Part shown: one piece after another, positions 28,862 to 49,221 of the stretch
Numbering within the stretch: position 1 is the stretch's first letter
Layout: every line of letters begins with the position of its first letter
NCBI GenBank assembly: GCA_000002445.1
Contig: CM000207.1
Location: 320,001 to 384,000, forward strand
Length of the DNA: 64,000 bases
From: Trypanosoma brucei
Lineage: Eukaryota
Direction of reading: 5' to 3'
Translations under genes and position numbers: made by a program
The notes under the pieces: generated by a model
What the model was told of the DNA's origin: nothing
The model's input: the letters and a program-made list of their open reading frames with translations, nothing else
Database searches by the model: none

Positions 28862-30355
28862 TTAGTAGTTGTTTCCATTTTCCTCTTTTGTAAGTTTGCC
28901 TCCATTCATAGCAATCCATCCTTCACAGCATTCAGATCCACAGCAACATTGAAATGGTGGTGTTGTTTCATCCCTAAATAGACGGTAGTCCATTGTAAGT
29001 TCTTCGCCTCGGGCAATATCACGGGTGGCGTAGAGATTCAAAGACCGATTTGGTCCAAAGTTCATGTTGGGAACACAGGAGTGACTAAATGTGCGCCAAT
29101 TTGTTGGCTCATTATCCCAAAGGGCATAGTAATGACCATCTCCACCAAGTGGCCACGCTTTTTGTGCGAACTGATCATACTCCTCTTTTCCCCTCGTCGC
29201 CTTTACATGAGGTTTTGTGTAAAGACGAACCGACTGCCCCTCTGCTTCAAAAATAGGGGATCCTGCTGATATGTCACGCGTAGCGCACATCCGATACCCC
29301 TGTGCAGGGTTATATACGCAGCGGAACAGAGGTTGCATGCGCTCATTCCGTCTAAGGGCCTCCTTTATCTGAAGCAGAGTAAATTCCCTTTGATTGAAAC
29401 CTGGTGTCAAACGCAAGATCCAATCAGCTGATCCCTCTTGCCCGGGTGGATACATGACGCCGCAGTTAGGGTTAATCTCCAAGAATACAACATCATGTGT
29501 CGACCGGTCGATGCGCACATCCACCCTCCCATATCCTACACCTCCCATCATATGCATAAACGATGTTCGTGCTGTGGAAAGGACTTGTGACAACGCAGGG
29601 TCATCTTCCGGCATAAGACGCCACTCCATTCCCTCATATGTTTCCCACTTCAAATGAAAATGTTTGAAATCTTCACCCTCAGGAAATTGCACCATTACAG
29701 GAGGGAAAACACGAATGCCATCAGGTTGCGTGCTGTCTGCACACACAAGTATCGTCGCCTCATCGCCAACAACGAATTCTTCAACGAGAGCAATTTGATA
29801 CTGTTCAATAAAGCGAGTTACACGACTGTGCAAGCTATCCATGTCATAAACTTTGCACGACTTATCCATTCCAACACTGCTGTAACCGGAAACGTGTTTG
29901 ATTATCAGTGGGAATGAAAGCACCGAACATAATTCACGTATATTGTCACCAGCTTCTAAAACAGCATGTTTGGCCGTTTTTATCCTAAAGTAGTGAGCAA
30001 TCTGCTTCATCTCCGGCTTAGATAATTCGTAGTACTTGGAAACTGCACCAGTAAAGGGTACGTGAAAACTCTCGAGGGCTTGCACGACGTCAACACCCGC
30101 CTTGTCCTCGTCTAAAGCTCCGTCACATTGGTTATAAAAGACATCATACGCGCCTGATTTCACAAGCTGACGTATTTGCCGATATGTCGTTGCCTTTTTA
30201 ATGAACGCAAGATCAAAGACAACTTCGTTTTGGTCTTCTTTTGTGAAGTAATGCTGAGGGGTCTGCACAAGTTCTCCCTCGTATGTTTTTAGCTCGCTGT
30301 CAGATCCCTCGTAGGAACAAACCAAAACACAAACCCGAGTGGGTTTGGCCGGCAT
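28862..30355 (-). CDS. Fusion protein with an N-terminal ATP-grasp (D-Ala-D-Ala-ligase / RimK-like) domain and a C-terminal SET methyltransferase domain with a post-SET Cys cluster.
   Basis: ATG confirmed. ATP-grasp motifs: IIKHVSGYSSVGMDKSCKV, ALVEEFVVGDEATILVC, and GYGRVDVRIDRSTHDVVFLEINPNCGV (compare Ddl GWGRIDV...LLEANTSPG). SET motifs: FSHSCVPN (NHSCxPN), EELTMDY (ELxxDY) and the post-SET CCCGSECC. Confidence 0.85.
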   Translation of the reverse strand: MPAKPTRVCVLVCSYEGSDSELKTYEGELVQTPQHYFTKEDQNEVVFDLAFIKKATTYRQIRQLVKSGAYDVFYNQCDGALDEDKAGVDVVQALESFHVPFTGAVSKYYELSKPEMKQIAHYFRIKTAKHAVLEAGDNIRELCSVLSFPLIIKHVSGYSSVGMDKSCKVYDMDSLHSRVTRFIEQYQIALVEEFVVGDEATILVCADSTQPDGIRVFPPVMVQFPEGEDFKHFHLKWETYEGMEWRLMPEDDPALSQVLSTARTSFMHMMGGVGYGRVDVRIDRSTHDVVFLEINPNCGVMYPPGQEGSADWILRLTPGFNQREFTLLQIKEALRRNERMQPLFRCVYNPAQGYRMCATRDISAGSPIFEAEGQSVRLYTKPHVKATRGKEEYDQFAQKAWPLGGDGHYYALWDNEPTNWRTFSHSCVPNMNFGPNRSLNLYATRDIARGEELTMDYRLFRDETTPPFQCCCGSECCEGWIAMNGGKLTKEENGNNY

Positions 30356-37351: not shown

Positions 37352-38746
37352 CTAATCGTCATCGTCTGAAGAAGTTTCTTCAAAGGATGGCTCCTCCTCC
37401 TCCTCCTCCTCCTCAGAGTTGGAGTCGGAACTTCCCCGGCGTGGTCTTTTCTTACCCGCTTTCTTAACTGGTTTCACAACCCTCTTAGTTGGTGCTTTCT
37501 TTGCTGAGCCCGAAGTTGTGGGGGCTTTCTTTGATATACTCGACTTTGATACCGAAGGTTTCAGCGTGGGTTTTCCCGGACCACCGCTTCGTGATGGTTT
37601 TGATTGTGAAGCCTTCCGATCCGCCGGACTTATTTTTAAGCACGCCTCCACGTGTTGTCGGTGCCGCGAAACAACCGCCTTCTTACATATTGGGCACTGC
37701 TCCTCCACAATGCATGTGCCAACAAGTGTATGAAGTTCATCCTGAGCATCAGACTCGCCAGCACGCCGGCGTGCCGCACGTTGTGTGCGCTCAACCGCCT
37801 TTTCCCGTTCCGCGCGCTCGCGCCACTCCTCAAGTCCTACCAAATCAATAAGATGCTGATTTACTGGATAATAAGGAAATCCAAACGCCTTCTTGCACGA
37901 GCCACACTTCACTTCAGTGTCGTACATGGTAACATCGTAATCGAAACCACGTTGGCAGTTTGGACAGGCGTGAAGGGCAGTGGCACATCCAAAGCGGCAC
38001 AGACACGTTTCACAATGCACTTTTTTTCCAGCTGGACCCATAAACAATGTGTAATGTTGCTTGGAATCCGGTTCCCAGGAAGTACGACATTGTGGGCAGC
38101 GCACAACAGTACGATTGTAAATACCACCAACTCGTGGCGTGCCTATTAATGCACGATTCGTAGACACAGATGGAGGAACTGCGGATGCAAGAAACATGAA
38201 ATCCTCATTACCCGCATCACTATCAGCAGTATCCTCTCCATTGGTATCTTCATCCTTGTCGCTACTCATGTCGCCCTCGTCATCGCGAAGAACAAAATCA
38301 TCCTCAACTATTGGTTTCGTCCGCTGTGGTATTATCTTTTTGACTGCTTCTTGCTTTTGCAACGTACTCGTGTGTGTTGTCCCTCTGGCTGCGACCTCCA
38401 CCAGTTGCTTTGGTTTCGCTTTCTTTACTCCTCCCTCAACCGTCTTTCTCTTATTCTTTTGTTTTTCCTCCTTTGCTTTTTGCGCCTGAAGGGTTTTGCG
38501 GTATTTCGGGTCTGCCACCTTCTCAAACGCACGTACCAGTTTCTGAAAGACTTCTGTTGCCTTTTCAAACCGGTTCTTTAGTTTATCCGGGTGGAGAATT
38601 CCCGCAAGTCGAATATAATTACGCCTCGCATCTGCAACCGACGTCTCGATAGTCACCACAGGAAGTTCAGGTGCTAATGAAAGTAACTGCAACACCGCCT
38701 CATCAGGACAGTCAAGAACTGACTGCGCAAGAACCACGACGTCCAT
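37352..38746 (-). CDS. J-domain protein with Cys-rich zinc ribbons, a UBZ4-type (C2HC, RAD18-like) zinc finger and a poly-Glu/Asp C-terminal tail.
   Basis: J-domain: ARRNYIRLAGILHPDKL...FQKLVRAFEKVADPKYRKT, with the HPD motif. The middle has several CxxC pairs (CPQCRTSW, CETCLCRFGC, CPNCQRGF, CGSCKKAF). CPICKKAVVSRHRQHVEAC fits C-x2-C-x7-H-x2-H-x3-C, which is UBZ4-like. The C-terminal EEEEEEEE is encoded by the (CTC)n run at 37391-37415. Confidence 0.8.
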   Translation of the reverse strand: MDVVVLAQSVLDCPDEAVLQLLSLAPELPVVTIETSVADARRNYIRLAGILHPDKLKNRFEKATEVFQKLVRAFEKVADPKYRKTLQAQKAKEEKQKNKRKTVEGGVKKAKPKQLVEVAARGTTHTSTLQKQEAVKKIIPQRTKPIVEDDFVLRDDEGDMSSDKDEDTNGEDTADSDAGNEDFMFLASAVPPSVSTNRALIGTPRVGGIYNRTVVRCPQCRTSWEPDSKQHYTLFMGPAGKKVHCETCLCRFGCATALHACPNCQRGFDYDVTMYDTEVKCGSCKKAFGFPYYPVNQHLIDLVGLEEWRERAEREKAVERTQRAARRRAGESDAQDELHTLVGTCIVEEQCPICKKAVVSRHRQHVEACLKISPADRKASQSKPSRSGGPGKPTLKPSVSKSSISKKAPTTSGSAKKAPTKRVVKPVKKAGKKRPRRGSSDSNSEEEEEEEEPSFEETSSDDDD

Positions 38747-40345: not shown

Positions 40346-41812
40346 TTAGTCCCAGACAACAGACTTCAAGCGGTTCATAAATCCCACTCGACCAAAAGTG
40401 GAACTACCTTTGCGCAGCGCAAGTCCCCTATTTTCCTCATCACTTACCGTTTCAACCTCTATCATATCCCAATGATCACTTAATGGTTCGACATAAACCC
40501 ACTCCTTTACTTCCCTTCGCTCAGTTTCCGTTTGCTTGTGCATATGACGTTGCACAATTTCTACAATAAGGGGAGCCTTCGCTTGTATAAAAGGATGCTC
40601 ACGTATCACCGCAACAGTGGCACGTTCAAATGAGTTTGTTTTCACTAATGACTCCACAAGCGACTTGGCATCATCCGATACATTGGCCCAATGCGGACCG
40701 ACGCAGCGGATGCCTTTCAGCATATTTTGGTAAAGAGAACTAAAGCATCGCGTAGCCACAGGCATATGACCACACAACAAAACATATGCTACAACACCTA
40801 AGCTGTACATATCCGCAAGATGCATCGTCTCTCCCAACGCCTCATACACACGGCGACGTTCCACGACAGCGCGTATATTCTCTGGAGAAGTGTAACCTGC
40901 GGTTCCACAAGGTACAAAAAGTTGTGTTTCGCACTGTTTCACATACTCCGCAAGGCCAAAGTCGATGATCATCACCCTTTTGAAGTCGTGCGAAAGAACG
41001 ATGTTTTCAAGCTTTATATCACGATGCACTATTCCTTTCTTGTGGTAAAGGTAGTCAAGACCTTCTGCCACCTGCAGGACAACATTTGCCACAAGAACTT
41101 CTACGTCGTATTTATATTCCTTAGCTAACCTCCATGCTTGCATGAGCGAACCGCCATCACCTGCTTCCATAACAATAACAAGGTGATGTGGTGTCTGCAA
41201 TACCTCCAATAGTTTTGCAACATTATGATGATCCACATCTTGCATTATTTCCAACTCTGTTACAATTTTCTTCCACGAACGATAGGTCACAACCGATGCT
41301 TTAGTTATTACTTTAAGTGCCACACGCCTTCTACAGGGATAACTCCGGTCTTCGCATTTATACACAGAGCCAAACCCACCTTTACCAATCATAGCTCCCT
41401 CAAAGAATGTTGGGAAGCGGTCTGTTATACTTTCATAATAAACATAATCTCCAACATTGAATTCAGAGAGGGATGTGTAACATGAATGCATGAGTGCGTT
41501 AATGCTGCGGCTGTCGAGAAATGACATAATGAGACGCGCCACGCTTCCATCACGCTTCCCCGTACGTAAGTTACGCAAACTTCTAAACACAGCGGGAAAC
41601 TTGCAGGAGTTGCACCGCCGTAAGCGTCGCCCACCATATGTAGCAGTGCATGGGGCACAATTGTCACAAAATATCCGTCCACACCACTGGCAGTGTTGTT
41701 TACTGACGAGTAGTGAAAACTTCTTGCGGCACAGGCGGTTCTCACAGGCATCTGTTGAGCACCAGTCGCGTCGCTGCTCACCGGGAATTACTAATTCATG
41801 CTCCCCGCGCAT
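40346..41812 (-). CDS. Protein kinase with an N-terminal FYVE-like zinc finger.
   Basis: The track start at 41836 is TTG; the ATG is at 41812 (MRGEHELVI...). The N-terminus WCSTDACENRLCRKKFSLLVSKQHCQWCGRIFCDNCAP is a FYVE-type Cys arrangement that lacks the canonical R(R/K)HHCR basic patch. The kinase core has HRDIKLENIVL, IIDFGLAEY and GTAGYTSPE. Confidence 0.85.
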   Translation of the reverse strand: MRGEHELVIPGEQRRDWCSTDACENRLCRKKFSLLVSKQHCQWCGRIFCDNCAPCTATYGGRRLRRCNSCKFPAVFRSLRNLRTGKRDGSVARLIMSFLDSRSINALMHSCYTSLSEFNVGDYVYYESITDRFPTFFEGAMIGKGGFGSVYKCEDRSYPCRRRVALKVITKASVVTYRSWKKIVTELEIMQDVDHHNVAKLLEVLQTPHHLVIVMEAGDGGSLMQAWRLAKEYKYDVEVLVANVVLQVAEGLDYLYHKKGIVHRDIKLENIVLSHDFKRVMIIDFGLAEYVKQCETQLFVPCGTAGYTSPENIRAVVERRRVYEALGETMHLADMYSLGVVAYVLLCGHMPVATRCFSSLYQNMLKGIRCVGPHWANVSDDAKSLVESLVKTNSFERATVAVIREHPFIQAKAPLIVEIVQRHMHKQTETERREVKEWVYVEPLSDHWDMIEVETVSDEENRGLALRKGSSTFGRVGFMNRLKSVVWD

Positions 41813-41832
41813 GACTGCACAACTTAACACAC

Positions 41833-41868
<36 letters not shown>

Positions 41869-44403: not shown

Positions 44404-47400
44404 TTACCGCAGGTCTTCTGACACCTCCGCAACAGTGTGAGAGTGTCGGTCCTTTATTTTCTTCGACGATGTCCTCTTCTTTGTATGACCGCTGCTTCCT
44501 CTATCCTTTTCATCTGCTCCTATCTCTATTTTTGTCGCACTATTTCGTGATTTTTTGTGCGACATTTTGGTTTGAACAGCGTTGAGGTTGAGTAGGGCTG
44601 CTTTTTCCATTTCTTCTGAGAAAGGGTACTGAATTCCAATTCGGTCTGCCATGGCCATGTACTCCGCTAATTTGTTCTTCATGGGAACAACTTCCCCAGC
44701 AAGCATCTGCAGTTCCGCCTTCAGTTGCTCAACAGAGGCGTCATCACCTCCCTCTTTTTTGCGCAGAGCCTCCCTGGCTTGCCTAAGTTTAGAGCGCAAC
44801 CGTTTGTTCTCTGTCGTGAGCAGTTGCAGCTTTTTATCCGCTCCATCACCATTTACTGTTTTCTCGTCAACAGGGAGAATAGATGCGACTGGTTCAGCGG
44901 CACTCTCCAACTGCTGCTCAAGTTGTTGAATCTTTTCCTGCAACTCTTCCACCTGCCTCTCCAGGTCGTTTGTTGTGTAATCCTGCATTATACGCAGCTT
45001 CTCTGTGAGGTCAGCAATACTTTCCTTCAGCTTCCCATTTTCCTCTTGCAAAACCGATAGTTTGTCGTTAGATTCTTTCAGTTGCGCAGCCAAACTCTCA
45101 GCCTCCCTCTCATTTCCAACACTGCGATATGACGGGCTATCAGCACCGTGCGCCAGTACGTCCACCGCAGGGCCGTCATCAAAGCGAACAAGCGATAAGA
45201 GGTCGGTGTTTGGTTGCTTTTTCTTCTTTCTCCTGACTGGCAATGTAACAGCACCACTGACAATTTGTTCAGCACGCGCTGTTTGCAGCTTTTCTTCAAG
45301 TTGTTCGATGCGCCTACGCATAGCCGCTGCATCATCGTCTAACTTCTTCCTCTCTTCTTCAAACCTTTCATTGACCTCTGCAGAACTTCGTTCCTGCTCC
45401 TCTAACTGCCGATGTGCCTCTTTAAGAGTAACCCTTAACTGATCTACTTGTACACGCAGAGCAGTAACATCCGAATCTTCCGCCGCAGCGGATGAAGCTC
45501 GAGCAGCAACGCCACCGGCGGCTTCTGTGGATTGACGCAATTTGTCAAGTTCGCTTTCGATATGCAACCGCTCTTCTTCGACTTGATGCAACTGGGCACA
45601 CAACCTTCCACTTTCATTCTCGTACCTCTGCCTTTCTTCTGCTATGCGAACCTCCATCTCCAACTCCTTTTCATGCCGAACTGCCTCCAATTGATCATTT
45701 ACAGTTACCATTACACGACGTAGCTCCTCCTTCACGGCCTCCAACTCACTGCTAGTCGCCACTATCGTGGAGAGCAACTTTTCTTCTTGATTAGACTTTT
45801 CCTCCACCAAGCACTGATATTTATTCCTTTCCAGCTCAAGCGCGCGGTACTCATCCGTTAACTTTGCCATCTTCTCGTTGGTATTGGTGCACATCGCGGT
45901 TTCAGAGGCTAGACGCTCGGCAATTAATCCTAATTCAGCGGAGTGAGCAGAGCGAATTTGTTCGTTTTGCCTCAGTTGCTCCTCGTTCTCTGCCTCCAGT
46001 TCGTCAATCGTTTGACGGTACACCAAAAGCTCGGAGGTGAGCCGATCAATATCAGAAACCATTTGTTGGTTTTCGCTTACAAGTCTCGTGTTCTCGACCA
46101 TTACCGAGCGAATATCGTCAGGAACAAAGCTGTTACTCTCTAACTGTGCAGCAACGGTCCCTTCGCTTGCAACTGCGCGCTCACATTCGACTCCGCCAAC
46201 ACTAGTCCTTTGTTCAACACAGGCCCCAACGCCTTTGGTATCGTTAGCACCTCCACACTGCCGCATAACTTCTTCCATACGAAGCTGCAGTTCGTTTAAT
46301 TGGCCTTCGAGTGTAGTATTCTGGCCGCACAGTTTGTTATTTTCTTCCATCAGGCGACACACCTCCACACGAAGTTCCGCGCTTTCTTTCACAAGCGCAG
46401 CAACCTCGTCCTCACGCGACTTAAGAGTTTGCCTCTGGTTGTCTACAGTGTCCTGAAGACTCGCTCTCTCCGAACCCACACGTTGCAAGTCTGCTTGTGT
46501 TTCCCCCAGTTGCACTTTCACAGCTTGTAAAGAGAATTCCAGTGCCGTGCACCGTGCCTCAGTGTCACTTCCCGTATTCTGTCTTTGTGCTTCCTCTAAC
46601 TGAGTGATTTCTTCCCTAGCTTTTAACAATGCTTTTTCCGACTCCTCAGCACAAGAAAGACGCTCTCGTAACGTAGAAACCTCTTGCTGTAGCTCAGCTA
46701 CGCTTGTCTCAAATTGTGGTATTTTTTCTGCTTGCATGCGAGCCCTGTCAAGCTCCAACTGAGCTGCTTCGTAGTCACGAGAAAGCTGATCCCTTTCCAC
46801 CCTCAAGTTGTTGATATCAGTCGTAAGAGTTTCACATTGTGCCTCCAGCCCACGAAGCCGCTCCTCGTCATGTTCTTTTGTGGTTGCGAAGTAGGTTGCT
46901 TCCTCTTTCATTGCGGAAGATAGATCCGTCAGCTTCCCATTTTCTTCAGTAACTTGGGCAAGACGCGACTCCAAGATTGAAATCTTCTCCATTGCAGCCT
47001 CGTGTTGGTGTTGAGCGTCCTCGCAATTTTTGCACGATTTTGGCTCATTCATCGAGGCAGTCAGTAGCGTATCAACATCATAACTGGGTGCAGTCAGTTT
47101 TGCCTCCGCAGAACAACTCTCATTTTGTCTGATCCTATCTTCCAACTCTCTCAGTTTTTCGGTTAATGCCCTGTTCTCGGCTTCCACGTCCTTGTGCATG
47201 CTTGATTCAGTGGCAAGGTTTTCACGCAGATCTTCCAGCTCCTGTTCGTACCGTGTTATCTTGTCATGTAATTCCTGCTGCTTCTGCTCTGCGACGCTGG
47301 CACTGTCACATTCCTCCCTCGACGCTTGAAGCTCCCATTGTTGTTGAGTTAACTCCGCGGTTTTTGCTTGTAGTTCCGCTTGTAGTCGCTGTAGTTGGTC

Positions 47401-49221
47401 CCTCAATTCATCCTCTCGTATGCGATGCCGGTCAACCTCACTTCGTAAATCGTTGAACACCAAACTATTGGCCTCCAGTTCTTCCATACGAAGCTGCAGT
47501 TCGTTTAATTGGCCTTCGAGTGTAGTATTCTGGCCGCACAGTTTGTTATTTTCTTCCATCAGGCGACACACCTCCACACGAAGTTCCGCGCTTTCTTTCA
47601 CAAGCGCAGCAACCTCGTCCTCACGCGACTTAAGAGTTTGCCTCTGGTTGTCTACAGTGTCCTGAAGACTCGCTCTCTCCGAACCCACACGTTGCAAGTC
47701 TGCTTGTGTTTCCCCCAGTTGCACTTTCACAGCTTGTAAAGAGAATTCCAGTGCCGTGCACCGTGCCTCAGTGTCACTTCCCGTATTCTGTCTTTGTGCT
47801 TCCTCTAACTGAGTGATTTCTTCCCTAGCTTTTAACAATGCTTTTTCCGACTCCTCAGCACAAGAAAGACGCTCTCGTAACGTAGAAACCTCTTGCTGTA
47901 GCTCAGCTACGCTTGTCTCAAATTGTGGTATTTTTTCTGCTTGCATGCGAGCCCTGTCAAGCTCCAACTGAGCTGCTTCGTAGTCACGAGAAAGCTGATC
48001 CCTTTCCACCCTCAAGTTGTTGATATCAGTCGTAAGAGTTTCACATTGTGCCTCCAGCCCACGAAGCCGCTCCTCGTCATGTTCTTTTGTGGTTGCGAAG
48101 TAGGTTGCTTCCTCTTTCATTGCGGAAGATAGATCCGTCAGCTTCCCATTTTCTTCAGTAACTTGGGCAAGACGCGACTCCAAGATTGAAATCTTCTCCA
48201 TTGCAGCCTCGTGTTGGTGTTGAGCGTCCTCGCAATTTTTGCACGATTTTGGCTCATTCATCGAGGCAGTCAGTAGCGTATCAACATCATAACTGGGTGC
48301 AGTCAGTTTTGCCTCCGCAGAACAACTCTCATTTTGTCTGATCCTATCTTCCAACTCTCTCAGTTTTTCGGTTAATGCCCTGTTCTCGGCTTCCACGTCC
48401 TTGTGCATGCTTGATTCAGTGGCAAGGTTTTCACGCAGATCTTCCAGCTCCTGTTCGTACCGTGTTATCTTGTCATGTAATTCCTGCTGCTTCTGCTCTG
48501 CGACGCTGGCACTGTCACATTCCTCCCTCGACGCTTGAAGCTCCCATTGTTGTTGAGTTAACTCCGCGGTTTTTGCTTGTAGTTCCGCTTGTAGTCGCTG
48601 TAGTTGGTCCCTCAATTCATCCTCTCGTATGCGATGCCGGTCAACCTCACTTCGTAAATCCCTAAACATAACATTTTTTGATTCATCTTCGTCCTGAGCA
48701 ATACGAACAGTGACTGCAAGTGGACTACGACTTATAACCTCTTGTTGGTCACGCACAACCGCAGAGAGCTTTTGAACGTTGGCGTGCCCCTGCTGGACCT
48801 CCATCAGTAACTTTTGCACTTCGCCATTGGATGAGGTGTGCTGGGCTCGGAAGTCGGTGAATTCCTTGCACAAATTGTCTAATAACTTCTGCAGGTTTTC
48901 CGGCGTGGCTGTCTTTGAGCTTCCAAACAATTTAAACTTATCCCGTTCATAAAGTGCTTTAAGCACAGGTGTTTCGGAAAATATGTTGGTACTATAAGTT
49001 TCACACCTCACTTGCATCTCCGCTACAGTTCCAGAAAGTTTTGCATTCTCATCACATACCTTTGTAAGCACGTCCGTGAGCGACTTATTCTCCCGCTCGA
49101 GTTGCTTAACCCGCTTGACCAGTGCATCGGCCTCTTCAGTGGATTGCACAATTTGTATTGCCTTTACAGGTTGCTGCGCCGTCGGGCCGTTGTCCACATC
49201 GCAGTGTCCGGATGCCTCCAT
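44404..49221 (-). CDS. Giant coiled-coil protein (1605 aa) containing an internal, perfect ~403-aa tandem duplication.
   Basis: ATG confirmed (plus 49219-49221 cat). It has E/Q/L/R/K-rich heptad composition nearly throughout. The block FNDLRSEVDRHRIREDELRDQLQRLQAELQAK...QLNELQLRMEE occurs twice in tandem. Confidence 0.85.
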   Translation of the reverse strand: MEASGHCDVDNGPTAQQPVKAIQIVQSTEEADALVKRVKQLERENKSLTDVLTKVCDENAKLSGTVAEMQVRCETYSTNIFSETPVLKALYERDKFKLFGSSKTATPENLQKLLDNLCKEFTDFRAQHTSSNGEVQKLLMEVQQGHANVQKLSAVVRDQQEVISRSPLAVTVRIAQDEDESKNVMFRDLRSEVDRHRIREDELRDQLQRLQAELQAKTAELTQQQWELQASREECDSASVAEQKQQELHDKITRYEQELEDLRENLATESSMHKDVEAENRALTEKLRELEDRIRQNESCSAEAKLTAPSYDVDTLLTASMNEPKSCKNCEDAQHQHEAAMEKISILESRLAQVTEENGKLTDLSSAMKEEATYFATTKEHDEERLRGLEAQCETLTTDINNLRVERDQLSRDYEAAQLELDRARMQAEKIPQFETSVAELQQEVSTLRERLSCAEESEKALLKAREEITQLEEAQRQNTGSDTEARCTALEFSLQAVKVQLGETQADLQRVGSERASLQDTVDNQRQTLKSREDEVAALVKESAELRVEVCRLMEENNKLCGQNTTLEGQLNELQLRMEELEANSLVFNDLRSEVDRHRIREDELRDQLQRLQAELQAKTAELTQQQWELQASREECDSASVAEQKQQELHDKITRYEQELEDLRENLATESSMHKDVEAENRALTEKLRELEDRIRQNESCSAEAKLTAPSYDVDTLLTASMNEPKSCKNCEDAQHQHEAAMEKISILESRLAQVTEENGKLTDLSSAMKEEATYFATTKEHDEERLRGLEAQCETLTTDINNLRVERDQLSRDYEAAQLELDRARMQAEKIPQFETSVAELQQEVSTLRERLSCAEESEKALLKAREEITQLEEAQRQNTGSDTEARCTALEFSLQAVKVQLGETQADLQRVGSERASLQDTVDNQRQTLKSREDEVAALVKESAELRVEVCRLMEENNKLCGQNTTLEGQLNELQLRMEEVMRQCGGANDTKGVGACVEQRTSVGGVECERAVASEGTVAAQLESNSFVPDDIRSVMVENTRLVSENQQMVSDIDRLTSELLVYRQTIDELEAENEEQLRQNEQIRSAHSAELGLIAERLASETAMCTNTNEKMAKLTDEYRALELERNKYQCLVEEKSNQEEKLLSTIVATSSELEAVKEELRRVMVTVNDQLEAVRHEKELEMEVRIAEERQRYENESGRLCAQLHQVEEERLHIESELDKLRQSTEAAGGVAARASSAAAEDSDVTALRVQVDQLRVTLKEAHRQLEEQERSSAEVNERFEEERKKLDDDAAAMRRRIEQLEEKLQTARAEQIVSGAVTLPVRRKKKKQPNTDLLSLVRFDDGPAVDVLAHGADSPSYRSVGNEREAESLAAQLKESNDKLSVLQEENGKLKESIADLTEKLRIMQDYTTNDLERQVEELQEKIQQLEQQLESAAEPVASILPVDEKTVNGDGADKKLQLLTTENKRLRSKLRQAREALRKKEGGDDASVEQLKAELQMLAGEVVPMKNKLAEYMAMADRIGIQYPFSEEMEKAALLNLNAVQTKMSHKKSRNSATKIEIGADEKDRGSSGHTKKRTSSKKIKDRHSHTVAEVSEDLR
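46270..48660. repeat. Direct tandem duplication with a 1209-bp period. 46270-47451 is repeated, apparently identically, at 47479-48660 (the second copy truncated by ~27 bp), inside the giant coiled-coil CDS.
   Basis: The left junction (ttcttccatacgaagctgcagttcgtttaattggccttcgag at 46270 and 47479) and the right junction (cctcaattcatcctctcgtatgcgatgccggtcaacctcacttcgtaaatc ending at 47451 and 48660) were located by eye. Identical plus-strand ORF translations recur at 46300/47509, 46714/47923 and 47166/48375, consistent with ~100% identity. The period of 1209 = 3 x 403 preserves the frame. Confidence 0.9.

Follow-up and report, generated by a model that had tools for sequence, protein, structure and literature searches.

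A Nucleolar J-Protein of Trypanosoma brucei with a Predicted Zinc-Ribbon Module and a Putative UBZ4-Like Finger

Results

The gene and its setting

The window considered here is a stretch of 64,000 nucleotides from chromosome 9 of Trypanosoma brucei (contig CM000207.1), and the subject within it is the gene Tb927.9.1560, which encodes a J-domain protein carrying additional zinc-binding elements. The interval 37352..38746 on the minus strand is exactly one complete open reading frame (ORF), running from ATG to stop and specifying 464 amino acids plus the stop, as judged from the list of ORFs and its translation. Translation of the same interval on the plus strand meets stops throughout, which places the gene on the minus strand. 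Its product shows 100% identity to XP_803444.1 of T. brucei TREU927 (UniProt Q38FZ1), which the databases label "hypothetical protein, conserved". Its last 21 residues, SEEEEEEEEPSFEETSSDDDD, appear in PMC9659390, where they are quoted as the acidic sequence of the protein under the name Tb927.9.1560; this fixes the identity of the gene. The ortholog in Leishmania is J73 (LmjF26.2520 / LINF_260031000).

From its N-terminus, the protein consists of a J-domain, a disordered linker, a module with eight cysteines in four CxxC knuckles (called here the Cys8 module), a long charged helix, a C2HC finger, and a tail that is first basic and then acidic. The positions given below for these features are those of the window, and all are on the minus strand.

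A divergent J-domain on a flexible linker

The J-domain covers residues ~16-90 (38477..38701) and is recognized by the Pfam DnaJ model, by a profile of the family searched against PDB, and by AlphaFold2. DnaJ (PF00226) matches residues 36-84 with an E-value of 1.1e-5 and 25.9 bits, the gathering cutoff being 27.8; the same model gives 29.5-36.7 bits in distant relatives, and most of the SAP-bearing members scanned (described below) reach the Pfam cutoff. A profile built from the N-termini of the orthologs matched 18 PDB sequences, every one of them a J-domain protein (best E 8.8e-5), while the J-domain matches found by a single-sequence phmmer search of PDB with Tb927.9.1560 were weak. An AlphaFold2 run on the full-length protein with 19 kinetoplastid orthologs gave predicted local distance difference test (pLDDT) values of 84-95 over residues 1-100. 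Helices I (18-22), II (37-50), III (60-78) and IV (from 80) are predicted, and an extra N-terminal helix (3-12) is placed immediately outside the J-domain.

The HPD tripeptide, the motif that activates Hsp70, occupies residues 52-54 (38585..38593), in the loop between predicted helices II and III. It is invariant in 19 of 19 orthologs and kept in nearly all full-length members of the family. A preliminary description, made from the letters of the window alone, had proposed a canonical HPD J-domain, and the proposal holds good, what with the position of HPD, the DnaJ match and the exclusive J-domain matches in PDB. Nor have the helix II/III residues on which that proposal leaned been lost: R41, R42, Y44 and R46 (helix II) are invariant among the 19 orthologs, and so are F67, A73-F74-E75 and D79-P80 (helices III/IV). 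The J-domain is divergent, yet it looks functional, with stimulation of the Hsp70 ATPase a prediction from its sequence.

Residues 91-189 (38180..38476) form a linker that is taken to be disordered, with pLDDT below 50 over residues 108-183 and poor conservation. A Lys-rich part is followed by a part rich in Asp, Glu and Ser, and the length of the linker varies among the orthologs.

Class A DnaJ proteins possess a zinc-finger-like region of four CxxCxGxG repeats, set in the C-terminal beta-sandwich domain. A region of this type was considered for Tb927.9.1560 and rejected: its four knuckles, CPQCRTSW, CETCLCRF, CPNCQRGF and CGSCKKAF, have no GxG. Pfam gave no match in the protein to DnaJ_CXXCXGXG or to DnaJ_C.

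The Cys8 module and the long helix

Residues 190-296 (37859..38179) make up the Cys8 module, which is specific to the family. The four CxxC pairs listed in the preliminary description are indeed present, as CPQC (217-220), CETC (245-248), CPNC (261-264) and CGSC (281-284), and they are predicted to sit on beta-hairpins like those of zinc ribbons. All eight cysteines are invariant or nearly so in the 19 orthologs. In an alignment of 39 sequences, which represents both forms of the family and takes in distant relatives at 27-31% identity, they are invariant, as are M236 and Y270. All eight are retained in 177 of 218 copies of the domain, and most of the other copies end at the terminus of their protein.

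With the 19 orthologs alone, the pLDDT of this region was 38-77. It became resolved after the distant relatives were added: a second AlphaFold2 run, on residues 186-385 with the 39-sequence alignment, gave a mean pLDDT of 95.2 and a predicted template modeling (pTM) score of 0.73. In the resulting model every CxxC lies between short strands, making four beta-hairpin knuckles, accompanied by one short helix (229-236). In a zinc ribbon, one zinc is shared by two CxxC knuckles, each set at the turn of a beta-hairpin; all four knuckles have this predicted placement, and together they are predicted to amount to two zinc ribbons. One relative among the 218 copies lacks knuckles 3 and 4 together, a hint that the zinc sites may be formed by knuckles 1+2 and 3+4. 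Matches of the module to Pfam families, all below threshold, were to Zn_ribbon_4, Zn_ribbon_6, IBR_1 and Zn_ribbon_SprT. A Foldseek search of the model against PDB returned nothing below E 0.5, and the weak matches to the module include the zinc ribbons of the RNA polymerase proteins Rpb9, A12.2 and TFS4. The modeled Cys8 module thus appears to be without a solved structural relative in PDB.

Perhaps the Cys8 module is instead a divergent ubiquitin ligase (E3) module of the RING or IBR kind, in which case the protein would be a chaperone-coupled E3 with the order J-domain, E3-like module, UBZ finger, as though a RAD18-like cassette had been attached to a J-domain. The top PDB match of the Cys8 profile is in fact the RING of RNF4 (single-domain E 0.0085), in whose alignment ligand pairs 1, 3 and 4 of the RING fall on knuckles 1, 2 and 3. 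There are weak matches to the RINGs of BRE1, BRCA1, TRIM25 and MAT1 as well, and the IBR_1 match recurs, below threshold, in 17 of 31 members. A RING, however, is a cross-brace with C3HC4 or C4C4 ligands and a hydrophobic contact for the ubiquitin-conjugating enzyme (E2) after the first Cys. In the Cys8 module, 12 residues separate C248 from C261 (pairs 2 and 3), where a RING has 2-3, and the first Cys-Pro is followed by Q, K or R and not by a hydrophobic E2 contact. The hairpins at all four knuckles speak against a RING too, and so does the joint loss of knuckles 3 and 4, which suggests zinc sites that are sequential and not cross-braced. The E3 reading of the module was rejected on the spacing and on the residue at the E2 contact, and a chaperone-coupled E3 is, to our minds, very improbable, the least probable of the explanations considered.

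The Cys8 module is joined to the finger by a Glu/Arg-rich helix, residues 297-348 (37703..37858), which DSSP assigns as one helix of 52 residues in both models, with pLDDT 89-98. Its charged pattern is conserved.

The wider family

A word-indexed protein search found 27 proteins, from kinetoplastids only. A profile of residues 190-376, used in an exhaustive search of 1.84 billion representative proteins, found 199 at E <=0.001, 136 of them at E <=1e-10. The family comes in two forms. The short form, to which the T. brucei protein belongs, has the order J-domain, linker, Cys8 module, charged helix, short finger and basic/acidic tail, the finger following the pattern LxGxC[IV]xxExCP[LI]CxKxVxSKHRxHVxxC. 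The long form begins with a SAP domain, followed by the J-domain (with HPD), the Cys8 module, the helix, a longer finger with the pattern CPRCG-x12-20-HLxxC[TN]D, and additional SAP domains C-terminal to the finger, for up to three SAP stretches overall. Of 10 distant relatives scanned, 8 matched SAP (PF02037, a helix-extended-helix motif), 6 with scores over the curated cutoff and reaching up to 76 bits, and some matches being weak; the Pfam scan of the T. brucei protein found none. Two of the distant members can be named, from the choanoflagellate Diaphanoeca grandis and the diatom Chaetoceros neogracile, and the remainder derive from metagenome or run assemblies. Distant members carry no functional annotation beyond generic automatic labels.

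Tb927.9.1560 is thus a member of an older eukaryotic family, and the SAP domains carried by the family in other lineages point to an ancestral role on DNA or chromatin. In the SAP-type relatives the order of zinc module, finger and SAP parallels that of RING, UBZ4 and SAP in RAD18, a likeness best treated as a lead only.

The ortholog in T. vivax, P0027 (384 residues), stops after the charged helix, without the C2HC finger and both tails, and its linker contains a large insertion. The gene model may be truncated, or the loss may be genuine.

The C2HC finger

The finger, a predicted beta-beta-alpha structure of UBZ4-like type, spans residues 349-372 (37631..37702), with its core CPICKKAVVSRHRQHVEAC at residues 351-369. 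Its ligands are C351, C354, H365 and C369, the zinc-binding histidine being H365 and not H362. These four residues and P352 are invariant or nearly so in the 19 orthologs and invariant in the 39-sequence alignment; conservation of H362, and of C345 upstream, is limited to the clade with short-type fingers. Strands at residues 350 and 357 and a helix at 362-371 are predicted, with pLDDT ~95. The spacing, Cx2C-x10-H-x3-C, is one residue under the x11 of RAD18 and WRNIP1.

Profiles of the finger were searched against 177,635 PDB sequences. The top match of the T. brucei-type (kinetoplastid) profile is the UBZ of WRNIP1 (E 0.082), with the four ligands aligned and one gap, and the UBZ of FAAP20 is also among the matches. 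The full-span matches of the SAP-type profile include the zinc finger of optineurin and the UBZs of SLX4 and RAD18; the matches ranked above them align the CPxCG knuckle only.

When kinetoplastid fingers were scanned against Pfam, 17 of 18 matched the RNF220 model, at positions 108-133, and Sgf11 was matched by 6 of the 18. The T. brucei finger scores 16.8 bits with the RNF220 segment and 14 bits with Sgf11, and zf_C2HC_14 matches it weakly. Peptides from RAD18, Spartan, WRNIP1 and Pol kappa, used as calibration, match the same RNF220 segment (13-17 bits), and the first three match Sgf11 as well (RNF220 and Sgf11 scores of 16.8 and 15.5 bits for RAD18 and of 16.6 and 16.3 bits for Spartan). 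Because genuine UBZ peptides give the same weak pattern, the T. brucei finger can be said to behave in Pfam like a divergent UBZ4. In the SAP type, zf_UBZ is matched by 7 of 42 fingers and PF18414, the NEMO/optineurin model, by 6 of 42. As an aside on RNF220 itself, the matching of positions 108-133 of its Pfam family (PF15926) by genuine UBZ4 peptides and by the trypanosome finger suggests that RNF220 may contain an unannotated UBZ4-like finger.

Profile-profile comparison with hhalign gave probabilities of 88-91% for the finger profiles against a set of UBZs (90.8% for the SAP type). The residue numbers of this set match those of PMC4370504, and its WRNIP1, FAAP20, NEMO and OPTN entries score 52-83 bits, each with the Pfam model of its own family. 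With a classical C2H2 control, the kinetoplastid profile gave 63%, over the CxxC knuckle only.

How WRNIP1 and RAD18 hold ubiquitin is described in PMC4370504. The beta-loop residues Pro21-Val22 rest on Ile44 of ubiquitin, Asp37 of the helix reaches Arg42, and a charged residue at the beta-loop contact is argued to disrupt the contact with Ile44. The equivalent of the first pair in Tb927.9.1560 is P352-I353, Pro followed by a hydrophobic residue as in WRNIP1, and the pattern CP[LIV]C is found in 46 of 56 short-type fingers. The Asp that contacts Arg42 (D37 in WRNIP1, D221 in RAD18) is replaced by Glu367, a conservative change.

Several observations weigh against the reading of the protein as a J-protein with a UBZ4 finger that binds ubiquitin. 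The J-domain score falls 1.9 bits short of the Pfam cutoff. The E-values of the finger are all marginal, 0.02-0.8, and the T. brucei finger gives no Pfam match to zf-WRNIP1_ubi, zf_UBZ or UBZ_FAAP20 (the RAD18 peptide is itself below the cutoff of zf-WRNIP1_ubi, 25.8 against 26.4, and the validated UBZ of Pol kappa likewise matches no curated UBZ model). The SAP-type profile scores 89.6% with the C2H2 control, and because of this the hhalign result shows a beta-beta-alpha finger and not specifically a UBZ. At the position of the Ile44 contact, 68 of 76 long-type relatives have CPRC. At that of D37/D221, Glu occurs in 26 of 56 short-type fingers, the remainder having L, R, Q, A or T, and in the long type the residue is R in 31 of 76 and D in 5 of 76. 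The basic finger loop of the T. brucei clade, with H362 and R363, would also suit the binding of nucleic acid or of an acidic protein. Finally, the literature searched held no data on ubiquitin binding, interactions or phenotype for Tb927.9.1560.

On balance, the finger is likely to have a UBZ-type fold, and binding of ubiquitin by the fingers of the T. brucei clade is plausible. The claim in the preliminary description of a UBZ4-type finger survives in part. The ligands, the fold and the nearest PDB neighbors agree with it, with WRNIP1 the top match in the profile search; the spacing is x10 and not x11, no curated UBZ model recognizes the finger, and hhalign fails to separate the SAP type from C2H2.

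Tails, localization and the two nuclear alternatives

The tail following the finger has two parts. Residues 373-438 (37433..37630) are basic (net charge +20 by charge count) and disordered, and they terminate in KKAGKKRPRRG, which resembles a nuclear localization signal; a motif of the RKRRR type is conserved in the orthologs. This part of the tail is likely to be a nucleolar or nuclear targeting region. Residues 439-464 (37355..37432), SSDSNSEEEEEEEEPSFEETSSDDDD, form a Ser-rich acidic end with a net charge of -15, in accord with the poly-acidic tail noted in the preliminary description. Tagging has placed Tb927.9.1560 in the nucleolus, and deletion of the acidic end kept nucleolar targeting and slightly raised nucleolar partitioning (PMC9659390). 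According to the same study, it is positive charge that sends proteins to the nucleolus in T. brucei. The literature searched held no further functional data on Tb927.9.1560.

The place of the protein in the cell bears on two further explanations. In the first, which we rank as the main rival, the protein is a J-protein of ribosome biogenesis: its ribbons and basic finger would have rRNA, rDNA or a pre-ribosomal protein, and not ubiquitin, as their ligand, and its J-domain would recruit Hsp70 for the release or folding of assembly factors. Its functional analogs would be yeast Jjj1 and human DNAJC21, in which a J-domain is combined with zinc fingers in a protein acting on pre-60S particles. 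The nucleolar localization fits this explanation, as do the weak Foldseek matches of the Cys8 module to polymerase ribbons, the SAP nucleic-acid-binding domains of the relatives, and the failure of hhalign to part the SAP-type finger from nucleic-acid-binding C2H2 fingers (the T. brucei-type profile matched the C2H2 knuckle only). The finger loop fits it as well in the short type, where basic residues make up 50% of it, H362 is invariant, and R363 and the stretch K/R-S-K-H-R are conserved. In the long SAP type, however, the charge of the loop is the opposite, 27% acidic (D/E), unlike what one would expect of a conserved surface for nucleic acid. Moreover, the best full-span sequence neighbors of the finger are ubiquitin-binding fingers, and zf-C2H2_jaz, U1-type fingers and the zuotin-homology domain are all unmatched, so that the protein is not an ortholog of Jjj1/DNAJC21. 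A ribosome-biogenesis factor of this kind is possible, though we consider it rather unlikely.

The second explanation makes the protein an adaptor in DNA damage or replication stress, with a UBZ4 through which Hsp70 would be delivered to lesions carrying ubiquitylated PCNA or histones, recruited after the model of RAD18, WRNIP1 and Spartan. The similarity of the finger to UBZs favors it, and so does the RAD18-like order of domains in the distant relatives. The steady-state localization of the protein is nucleolar, however, SAP is absent from it in T. brucei, and the equivalent of D221 in RAD18 is not conserved. A role in the DNA-damage response, raised in the preliminary description, finds no footing in what has been published on the protein: the localization is nucleolar and not at sites of damage (PMC9659390), and the literature, searched under the identifiers of the gene, yielded no damage-related data. 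We consider such a role improbable.

Neighboring genes

All 22 ORFs of at least 200 codons in the window are on the minus strand, and upstream of the ATG of Tb927.9.1560 lies a polypyrimidine tract followed by AG. Both are expected of the layout of a trypanosomatid polycistron, and the window (1-64000) is a single polycistronic unit around Tb927.9.1560-1610. The unit also encodes three protein kinases, one Metallophos phosphatase and PIS, the last being a neighboring ORF for a CDP-alcohol phosphatidyltransferase that fits Tb927.9.1610.

Three other ORFs, all on the minus strand, deserve mention. At 28862-30355, an ORF of 497 amino acids joins an ATP-grasp domain at residues 130-299 (Dala_Dala_lig_C, 46 bits) to a SET domain at the C-terminal residues 353-457 (50.7 bits), an unusual fusion. 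At 40346-41836, a protein kinase has an N-terminal zinc finger resembling FYVE (26.6 bits, cutoff 27.8). At 44404-49221, an ORF of 1605 amino acids has as its sole Pfam match a weak one to ArAE_2_N (E 3.8e-4), a putative six-transmembrane transporter domain of the endoplasmic reticulum (ER), and is otherwise unannotated.

Discussion

A possible route from ubiquitin to Hsp70 in the nucleolus

The explanation we prefer is that Tb927.9.1560 encodes a class C (type III) nucleolar J-protein, in which the C-terminal half is a reader that recruits a client and ubiquitin is the likeliest ligand of the finger. We hold the chance of its being right to be about even. According to the model, the basic tail would bring the protein to the nucleolus, where the zinc ribbons and the C2HC finger, with a rigid, charged spacer helix of ~50 residues between them, would recognize one particular partner or client. 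Then the J-domain, on its flexible linker of ~100 residues, would trigger hydrolysis of ATP in a nuclear Hsp70, which would clamp the client and remodel or extract it. The least secure step concerns what the finger binds, perhaps ubiquitin or a ubiquitylated protein of the nucleolus or chromatin. If the protein does read ubiquitin, it would be a counterpart of DNAJB2/HSJ1, with a UBZ finger in place of ubiquitin-interacting motifs (UIMs).

A bolder extension takes in the whole family. It may be an old and undescribed eukaryotic one, combining a J-domain with a RAD18-like reader cassette (a two-zinc module, a helix, a UBZ-type finger and, outside the group with short fingers, SAP domains) so as to couple Hsp70 to ubiquitin on chromatin; in T. 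brucei the result would be extraction of ubiquitylated proteins from rDNA chromatin or pre-ribosomes in the nucleolus. This we think unlikely, and advance as speculation.

Part of this is already known: the gene is catalogued, its localization is published, and the combination of a J-domain with a reader module is a familiar design. Searches of the literature (with JDP73, J73, the accessions and the gene identifier) led to two catalogues and one localization paper, in which the family is undescribed, and a large survey of J-protein architectures mentions no combination with SAP or UBZ. The Cys8 module with its two predicted ribbons, the UBZ-type finger and the broader SAP-bearing family are thus not described in the literature searched.

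J-domain proteins confer specificity on Hsp70, and because they do so, each newly found recognition module amounts to another task for the chaperone. To our knowledge, direct reading of ubiquitin by J-proteins is so far limited to UIMs, as in DNAJB2. If the nucleolar J-protein of T. brucei truly bears a UBZ finger, Hsp70 would be tied to ubiquitin signaling in ribosome production or the maintenance of rDNA. Should the finger prove not to bind ubiquitin, it would serve as a warning that UBZ4 spacing alone is no evidence of ubiquitin binding. In either event, the catalogue entry for J73, "type III, no other domain", gains a defined architecture, a confident structural model and ligands that can be mutated, and the existence of a wider family among protists, with its SAP-bearing forms, makes study possible in more tractable organisms.

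Comparison with known systems

The closest comparison is with Leishmania J73, a direct ortholog with 42-45% identity and the same architecture. J73 has been catalogued as a type III J-protein (PMC4488524, PMC9141911). The catalogue entries record the J-domain only, with no zinc module, finger, wider family or function.

The finger itself is best compared with the UBZ4s of RAD18, WRNIP1 and Spartan, which it resembles in the C2HC ligands, the knuckle of CP-hydrophobic-C, the helix end H-[VL]-acidic-x-C-L, and the predicted beta-beta-alpha fold. It differs from them in a loop that is x10 and strongly basic and in having Glu for the Asp that contacts ubiquitin. The host proteins differ as well, the finger being carried by a J-protein in the case of Tb927.9.1560 and by a ligase, an ATPase or a protease in the case of RAD18, WRNIP1 and Spartan. 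NEMO and optineurin offer another likeness, in that a long helix leads straight into a C-terminal C2HC finger that binds ubiquitin, and the optineurin finger is the best full-span PDB match of the finger of the distant relatives (E 0.02). However, NEMO and optineurin have no J-domain, the UBAN motif is not common to both sides, and the T. brucei finger misses PF18414.

In overall design, the nearest precedents are J-proteins with a reader of their own. Nuclear and nucleolar class C proteins such as Jjj1/DNAJC21 and DNAJC9 similarly combine an N-terminal J-domain with a dedicated recognition module, which in Jjj1 directs Hsp70 to ribosomal precursors. DNAJC9 directs Hsp70 to histones (PMC10939069). 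The relationship in sequence between these proteins and Tb927.9.1560 is confined to the J-domain, and the recognition modules differ. DNAJB2/HSJ1 joins a J-domain to UIMs that read ubiquitin, and in this way couples Hsp70 to ubiquitylated clients (PMC5409130). It is, however, a class B protein with two helical UIMs, cytosolic or associated with the ER, whereas Tb927.9.1560 is nucleolar, has a zinc finger and predicted zinc ribbons, and binds ubiquitin only putatively.

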